44,890 nucleotides of DNA from Escherichia phage Ivi, in the sequence record PV841871.1; one strand, 5' to 3'. Positions 36,881-36,909 of this stretch are shown in pieces (the first letter of the stretch is position 1; each line of letters starts with the position of its first letter). The position numbers and the translations under genes are program-made. A model generated the notes under the pieces. It was not told the DNA's origin, made no database searches, and worked only from the letters and a program-made list of their open reading frames with translations.

Positions 36881-36909
36881 ACTATAATAGCTAACTATTC
36901 AGGTGTCAA
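36881..36909 (-). promoter_or_regulatory. Class II promoter TTGACA-N17-TATAGT with AATAG-TTAG-CTATT in the spacer
   Basis: Perfect -35 and near-consensus -10 on the minus strand. Confidence 0.55.

Follow-up and report, generated by a model that had tools for sequence, protein, structure and literature searches.

A dyad-symmetric, operator-like site shared by σ70-type promoters of Escherichia phage Ivi, and a small Cro-like protein as its candidate partner

We analyzed the 44,890-nucleotide sequence of Escherichia phage Ivi (record PV841871.1, hereafter the window), a member of the genus Kagunavirus (Guernseyvirinae), around a minus-strand promoter at 36909-36881 that precedes the gene for a single-stranded DNA-binding protein (SSB). 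This promoter, named P_ssb (P36909), and two others of the same type, P33291 (33291-33263) and P39827 (39827-39798), also on the minus strand, are termed class II; judged by their sequence, they are host σ70-type promoters, and each carries the perfect palindrome AATAG-N4-CTATT within its spacer (36886-36899, 33268-33281, and 39803-39816, respectively). The same palindrome overlaps weaker promoters elsewhere in the window, termed class I, and its operator-like, protein-binding type of behavior in evolution is well supported by the comparison of relatives. We propose, with moderate confidence, that the dyad is an operator, most likely for a 71-residue helix-turn-helix (HTH) protein resembling 434 Cro, and that it would serve a Cro-like turn-down of transcription; we infer the identity of the binder, the sign of the regulation, and its timing. 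Gene functions were taken from the annotation of close relatives and from Pfam.

P_ssb has the architecture TTGACA-17-TATAGT (gTTGACAcctgAATAGttagCTATTATAGTtct), with a predicted transcription start near 36874, P33291 reads TTGACG-17-TATAGT (gTTGACGacctAATAGcgaaCTATTATAGTtag; predicted start near 33256), and P39827 reads TTGACA-18-TATAGT (TTGACAtaatgAATAGttcgCTATTATAGTtag; predicted start near 39791). Their hexamers match the σ70 consensus at 11, 10, and 11 of 12 positions, respectively, the −35 of P33291 being an imperfect TTGACA (5/6), and all three combine the A at −11 and the T at −7 with a spacer of 17 ± 1 bp and a co-oriented gene. They are among the four best σ70-like sites of the region 30000-44890, the fourth being a plus-strand element at 37212-37240 (10/12). 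Promoter-like matches as such are no commoner in this region than in shuffled sequence (15 observed versus 14.2 expected), and the palindrome is found in only these three of the top-scoring sites. The three near-consensus promoters with a palindromic spacer that a preliminary description had listed on the minus strand are all present where it placed them.

The palindrome of P_ssb reads AATAG-CTAA-CTATT on the plus strand and covers approximately −25 to −12, the register of all class II sites, in which the final T of the palindrome doubles as the first T of the −10 hexamer. Its left flank is TGAATAG at two class II sites and CTAATAG at 33263. AATAG-N4-CTATT is the commonest 5+5 palindrome in the window: the perfect form, AATAGNNNNCTATT, occurs seven times versus 0.02 expected, a count reached by none of 100 shuffles, and an extended 19-mer, AATAGNNNNCTATTATAGT, has six matches with at most two mismatches versus 0.05 expected. 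Scanning IMG/VR for the exact motif gave Kagunavirus contigs for the most part, together with isolated single matches in unrelated contigs.

The 7-kb stretch around P_ssb is about 90% identical to many Kagunavirus siphophages of Escherichia (Bas76, ST20, Golestan, XY1) and 80–90% identical to several hundred Jersey-like phages of Salmonella; in length, the window matches a complete genome of this group. Protein homology, blind to the motif, was used to collect the upstream regions of the three orthologous genes from about 50 loci of Kagunavirus and Jerseyvirus. In the resulting alignments, conservation is at least 90% in the half-sites, 50–70% in the central N4, and 30–80% in the linker that separates the −35 from the dyad. 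Both hexamers are kept in 41 unique P_ssb orthologue sequences, and in 31–41 unique sequences across the promoters; at the P_ssb orthologues, the center varies (TTAG, TTGG, TACT, CAAG, CAAA, TAGA, CGAG) and the half-sites are fixed. In VLCpiS11a-like and L070-like phages, promoters that lack the dyad occupy the corresponding positions; all of them retain the −35, and the −10 persists at the P170 orthologue and is weak or unclear at the P_ssb orthologue of VLCpiS11a. Relatives from Klebsiella, Serratia, and Hafnia likewise keep the promoters and drop the site altogether. The dyad is therefore an add-on that is not required for promoter function.

A further comparative signal comes from the Pantoea phage AH01, a complete Guernseyvirinae genome that contains five perfect copies of AATAC-N4-GTATT, versus 0.04 expected, and two hybrids. 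The AATAG type is absent from AH01 and present seven times in the window, whereas the AATAC type, present five times in AH01, is absent from the window. The AH01 sites occupy the orthologous promoters of both classes, and in class I the switch is accompanied by a −10 of TAGTAT in place of TACTAT; the IMG/VR locus L062 displays the same pattern. A dimeric, sequence-specific protein would be expected to produce such a symmetric, two-arm change across many promoters; σ70 contacts or recombinational homogenization would not.

Each of the seven perfect palindromes overlaps a core promoter, as do the imperfect copies at 39848 and 3776, and every site lies within the interval from about −40 to −6 of a promoter-like element. 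Class I (consensus cTTGCAC-17-TACTAT) comprises the sites at 85-98 (plus strand, cTTGCAC-17-TACTAT, palindrome over the −10, facing the rightward early genes), 10818-10831 (minus strand, TTGCAC-17-TACTAT, before the leftward gene for a 173-residue protein, 10791-10270), 20012-20025 (minus strand, TTGCGC-17-TACTAT, before a leftward small gene and the metallophosphatase gene 19740-18610), and 43542-43555 (plus strand, TTGCAC 43526-43531 and TACTAT 43549-43554). In these promoters, the −10 is made up of the last two central bases of the palindrome followed by CTAT. They are weak, matching the consensus at 3–4 of 6 positions in the −35 and at 4 of 6 in the −10. The small gene behind the 20012 site has a probable start near 19971, and its K1G orthologue is annotated as superinfection immunity. 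The palindrome at 43542-43555 is shared by this rightward class I promoter and a fourth, weaker class-II-like promoter on the minus strand (43565-43537, TAGATA-17-TATATT), which is the only promoter-like site between this palindrome and the operon of the Xis-like and primase genes.

A third architecture is found on the plus strand, where the imperfect palindrome ACTAGTTGACTATT (3776-3789) lies over the −35 of the promoter P3781 (TTGACT-17-TATATT, 3781-3809). The arrangement is kept in Jersey, with AATAGTTGACTAGT at 42338 and a promoter annotated at 42343-42371. Upstream of it, within 3657-3760 on the same strand, a promoter-like TTGACA-17-GATACT (10/12) precedes, by about 40 nt, the hairpin CCCGGCCCCGACCCAGCCGGG and nine consecutive T; this element, which carries no palindrome and has no Rfam match, has the look of a small non-coding RNA gene with a transcript of about 65 nt. 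A search of the window against Rfam found no known RNA family. The dyad is unlikely to act in RNA, as all of its copies are upstream of the predicted starts.

The dyad thus takes several positions relative to the hexamers: approximately −25 to −12 in class II, −19 to −6 in class I and in the promoter of the HTH gene itself, and over the −35 in P3781. The dyad centers lie near −33.5, −18.5, −15.5, and −12.5, and AH01 adds a register of −22 to −9. Such variability suits a repressor that occludes the promoter, and not an activator with stereospecific contacts.

The relation between the two classes had been described as one operator in opposite orientations, the class II core being the reverse complement of the class I core. 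The reverse complementarity is found for 43542, 20012, and 10818, and in part for 85, and the palindrome is common to both classes. The opposite orientation holds for the flanks only, because the 14-bp core is itself palindromic, and orientation carries little meaning for such a core. The asymmetric flanks are largely explained by the −10 hexamers and, at divergent intergenic regions, may reflect the opposing −10 as well. At the divergent class I sites 10818, 20012, and 43542, a good opposite-strand −10 (TATATT, TATGTT, and TATATT, respectively) directly adjoins the dyad, and these three may be bidirectional promoter cores sharing one operator; the site at 85 has no leftward gene to serve and carries CTATTCTATCTT in place of an opposite-strand −10. 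The palindrome is not a pair of back-to-back −10 hexamers, as the −10 elements are not mirror-symmetric about the dyad center.

The best candidate for the operator-binding protein is the 71-residue Cro/C1-type HTH protein encoded on the plus strand at 39892-40107. It belongs to the Pfam family HTH_3 (E 2.3e-12), and among proteins of solved structure, 434 Cro, also of 71 residues, is the best match by sequence (E 2.2e-6). An AlphaFold (AF2) model is a five-helix bundle with a pLDDT of 83.7, for which Foldseek matches, with TM-scores of 0.7–0.8, include C.AhdI (top, 0.76), HipB, 434 repressor and Cro, SinR, and P22 c2. As far as is known, all of these proteins bind dyads as dimers, and the operators of 434 Cro are likewise 14 bp long.

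The HTH gene is divergent from P39827, and an operator pair lies between them: the perfect palindrome of P39827 (39803-39816) and, with its center 45 bp away, the weakened operator AATATGGTACTATT (39848-39861, plus strand), which covers the extended −10 of the HTH gene (TG 39852-39853, TACTAT 39855-39860). The pair looks like a classic autoregulated divergent control region. The weakened site is kept in nearly all Kagunavirus loci, and a dyad over the −10 of the HTH gene recurs in AH01, in L062, and in VLCpiS11a-like phages, where it reads ATACTATAGTAT and where the operator set is otherwise missing. The system displays features of Cro/C1 control: a candidate HTH_3 regulator, a 14-bp dyad with conserved half-sites, overlap with core promoters, and a site at the regulator's own promoter. 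All Guernseyvirinae examined carry the HTH_3 gene. When every open reading frame of the window was profiled for its presence or absence in six complete genomes, no other gene tracked the operator set, the only matches being spurious overlapping frames inside the polymerase and exonuclease genes.

On infection, host RNA polymerase would initiate from both promoter classes, class II being strong and class I weaker. As the HTH_3 protein accumulates, its dimer would bind the dyads and cover the −35, the spacer, or the −10 region, and RNA polymerase would be excluded from all these promoters because the dyads span precisely these elements (−25 to −12, −19 to −6, or the −35). The outcome would be a genome-wide, Cro-like turn-down of early, middle, and replication transcription, with the regulator's own extended −10 promoter shut off last because its operator is imperfect and presumably weaker. 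The earlier proposal that a single repressor could occlude both classes is partly supported, by the operator-like behavior of the palindrome and by its variable position.

Several observations weigh against this model. The HTH_3 gene is also found in VLCpiS11a-like phages, L070-like phages, and the Hafnia phage TS33, all devoid of dispersed palindromes, so its presence does not predict the operator set. The recognition helices (TQGGIGH in AH01 with AATAC, SQGAINQ in Kagunavirus and SQSLITH in Jerseyvirus with AATAG) yield no clean residue-to-base rule across the lineages, those of Kagunavirus and Jerseyvirus differing and yet sharing AATAG. Where the left half-site is missing, the right one, (C/G)TATT adjoining TATAGT, is still kept in part, which means that the promoter itself contributes to the conservation. 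Finally, RNA-seq of the Kagunavirus K1B4 (PMC12645636), the only Kagunavirus transcriptome that we found, places the DNA polymerase and the methyltransferases in the "late" class, unlike an early shut-off; in the same data, the Cro-like gene K1B4_004 is "middle", a point in favor of the model, and the Xis-like gene K1B4_008 is among only four "early" genes. These data, sampled from 5 to 120 min at a multiplicity of infection of 100, give gene-level time classes, and since the sampling is coarse and 5′ ends were not mapped, they neither confirm nor refute the model. The earlier suggestion that promoter strength or orientation sets the timing is unsupported.

An alternative without any dedicated regulator would have paralogous promoter cassettes homogenized by recombination, or a spacer and −10-proximal sequence that tunes σ70 strength. 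It accounts for the homology break located exactly at the −35 of P_ssb, where an HNH gene is inserted, for the (C/G)TATTATAGT stretch kept even in lineages without the left half-site, and for the detection of the motif by PHIRE simply as a repeat. Homogenization would keep the central 4 bp and the linker, yet those vary most, and tuning gives no reason for the dyad symmetry or for the symmetric two-arm change at five AH01 promoters; we consider this explanation improbable.

A second alternative keeps the operator and exchanges the binder for the Xis-like HTH_17 protein, which would be made first from the divergent 43542 region and act on all promoters. This protein (Pfam HTH_17, E 3.9e-8) is encoded on the minus strand at 43170-42928 as an 80-residue open reading frame with a TTG start; the start is more likely the ATG at 43110, giving 60 residues, because the K1B4 orthologue is 183 nt long. 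It is the only other small DNA-binding protein and is found in exactly the two genera with the cleanest AATAG sets, Kagunavirus and Jerseyvirus, and its orthologue K1B4_008 belongs to the early genes mentioned above. No HTH_17 homologue was detected, even with a profile hidden Markov model, in the complete genomes of AH01 and phiEap-2 or in L062, all three of which carry operators, and this candidate was down-weighted for that reason. Excisionase-type HTH_17 proteins, moreover, usually bind direct repeats as monomers and not 14-bp dyads. We therefore regard HTH_17 as a quite unlikely binder.

We give equally little credence to a third alternative, in which the same HTH_3 protein and site form an activator or a dual regulator that represses class II and activates class I, in the manner of MerR or of controller (C) proteins of restriction-modification (R-M) systems. 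The weakness of the class I promoters would suit it, as would the presence, among the top structural matches, of R-M controller proteins, which both activate and repress. The spacers of 17–18 bp are not the 19–20 bp of MerR-type promoters, the position of the dyad differs between the classes, with no fixed place or helical phase relative to the promoter, the class I site covers the −10 hexamer itself, and orthologous promoters work without the site, as judged by their retained hexamers. A host DNA-binding protein exploited by the phage is very improbable: the half-site does differ by host (AATAG in E. coli and Salmonella phages, AATAC in the Pantoea phage), but the relatives from Klebsiella, Serratia, and Hafnia lack it at conserved promoters, the phage encodes a suitable regulator directly beside the operator pair, and we know of no enterobacterial regulator with this consensus, ArgR, TrpR, IHF, and others included, although no search aimed at it was made.

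The motif itself has been reported before. In the fBC-Eco01 paper (PMC9825357), PHIRE detected a 20-mer with the consensus tgAATAGTa-ccTATTat-T in seven copies, which were assigned to a phage-encoded RNA polymerase, and the VB_EcoS-Golestan paper lists the same PHIRE motif as seven "conserved promoter sequences". The copies lie at the same relative positions in both genomes, seven per genome, the weakened site at 39848-39861 corresponding to PHIRE PP5 and to Golestan no. 5. Neither paper notes the dyad symmetry, the flanking σ70 hexamers, or a link to the HTH gene. Bas76, Jersey, K1G, phiEap-2, and AH01 have no annotated RNA polymerase gene, which leaves the assignment to a phage enzyme unsupported, and the motif is flanked by σ70 hexamers; the assignment is probably a misreading of the PHIRE output. 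In the Jersey RefSeq record NC_021777, the orthologues of P_ssb (32925-32953) and P33291 (29238-29266) are annotated as TTGACA(N15-18)TATAAT-like promoters, the P39827 orthologue has no promoter annotation, and no operator is annotated. In the library that we searched, we found no paper on the operator reading, the dyad symmetry, the link to the HTH gene, or the AATAC variant, and nothing on mechanism under the exact string CTATTATAGT, MB78, Jerseyvirinae, or SETP3. What was already known is thus the motif as a PHIRE promoter and the σ70 annotation in Jersey, and the operator reading was not found in the library searched.

The class II promoters lie 32–54 nt upstream of a same-strand start codon, that of the first gene in each of three leftward blocks. 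P39827 precedes the genes for a 170-residue acidic protein (39766-39254), small open reading frames, a PD-(D/E)XK exonuclease (38658-37402), and an HNH protein (37435-36914). P_ssb precedes a Gp2.5-like SSB (36827-36201; Pfam Enc34_ssDNA-bd, E 1e-15), a 51-residue open reading frame, the DNA polymerase (35990-33750), and a VRR-NUC protein, within the last codons of whose gene P33291 is located. P33291 precedes a 63-residue open reading frame (33229-33038), a C5 methyltransferase (33041-32088), and an SNF2-type helicase (32095-30671), and its block, the last of the leftward replication cluster, ends at an intrinsic terminator (30350-30331, minus strand). The promoter anatomy, these short distances to replication and recombination blocks, and the conserved hexamers of the orthologues agree with the earlier assignment of the leftward replication genes to the class II promoters. 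The primase-helicase operon, further upstream, is outside the reach of all three. Between this convergent operon and the HTH gene lies a terminator hairpin with a palindromic stem (40096-40117, called on the plus strand), which we infer to act bidirectionally.

Some additional features were observed around these promoters. In six relatives (L007, L010, L012, L015, L026, and L029), P33291 is replaced by a terminator-like hairpin, GGCCC(T/C)TCGGGGCC, and P33291 is therefore dispensable. Homology among relatives breaks exactly at the −35 of P_ssb, which the HNH endonuclease gene (36914-37435) adjoins, and the promoters appear to be mosaic junctions or insertion points. Between P_ssb and the SSB start codon, the minus strand carries the hairpin CCGGG-cagtt-CCCGG (36854-36868), which is kept in seven Guernseyvirinae lineages; at three of the five pairs, two-sided changes preserve the pairing (CCCGG/CCGGG, CTCGG/CCGAG, CCCAG/CTGGG), and it may be a translational or stability operator for SSB. 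In the Klebsiella phage VLCpiS11a (L005), which is without the AATAG dyad, several intergenic regions repeat GTTGGTTGCAA or TTGCAACCAAC, a motif whose palindromic TTGCAA acts as a −35 in either direction.

Kagunaviruses and Jerseyviruses are common isolates in work on phage therapy and food safety, and their transcription program is essentially uncharacterized. If the proposed model is right, one small protein and a 14-bp site would explain how the replication and early operons are coordinated, and the published assignment of the motif to a phage RNA polymerase would be corrected. Engineers would gain a compact set of strong, probably repressible σ70 promoters and two natural, apparently orthogonal operator specificities, AATAG and AATAC. 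The dispersed operator set and the natural specificity switch make the model easy to test. More tentatively, the strictly virulent subfamily could keep a "Cro-only" global timer, one small HTH protein acting on dispersed operators within each early and middle σ70 promoter, with at least two co-diverged specificity groups, AATAG in Kagunavirus and Jerseyvirus and AATAC in AH01-like phages, as "immunity types" for cross-repression in co-infection, a possibility that we hold to be rather doubtful.

A Cro-type repressor with operators in σ70 promoters is a fairly ordinary kind of switch, proposed here for a virulent phage. A close parallel is 434 Cro with its OR and OL operators, which shares a 71-residue single-domain Cro/C1 HTH protein, a 14-bp dyad that varies at the center and is contacted, presumably also in Ivi, at its outer bases, operators over core promoters, and a divergent promoter pair beside the regulator gene. 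Unlike the lambdoid arrangement, the Ivi system has no CI partner, integrase, or immunity region, its putative sites are spread over at least eight promoters instead of clustered tripartite OR and OL, and its half-site is AATAG, not ACAA. A lambdoid CI/Cro bistable switch was rejected accordingly, as there is no divergent CI gene, tripartite operator, or integrase/lysogeny module: close relatives have no annotated integrase or CI gene, the window has a single Cro-sized HTH_3 gene, and lysogeny genes are reported absent in a Kagunavirus paper. The dispersal of the sites resembles that in phage P1, in which one repressor, C1, controls many operons from operators scattered around the genome within σ70 promoters. 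C1, however, is a large protein with no relation to HTH_3, recognizes an asymmetric 17-mer, and belongs to a temperate phage. The controller proteins of R-M systems, finally, resemble the Ivi protein in fold (C.AhdI, as above) and in binding dyads within promoters; they act on their own operon beside the R-M genes through paired C-boxes of fixed geometry, whereas the sites described here are genome-wide and variably placed.

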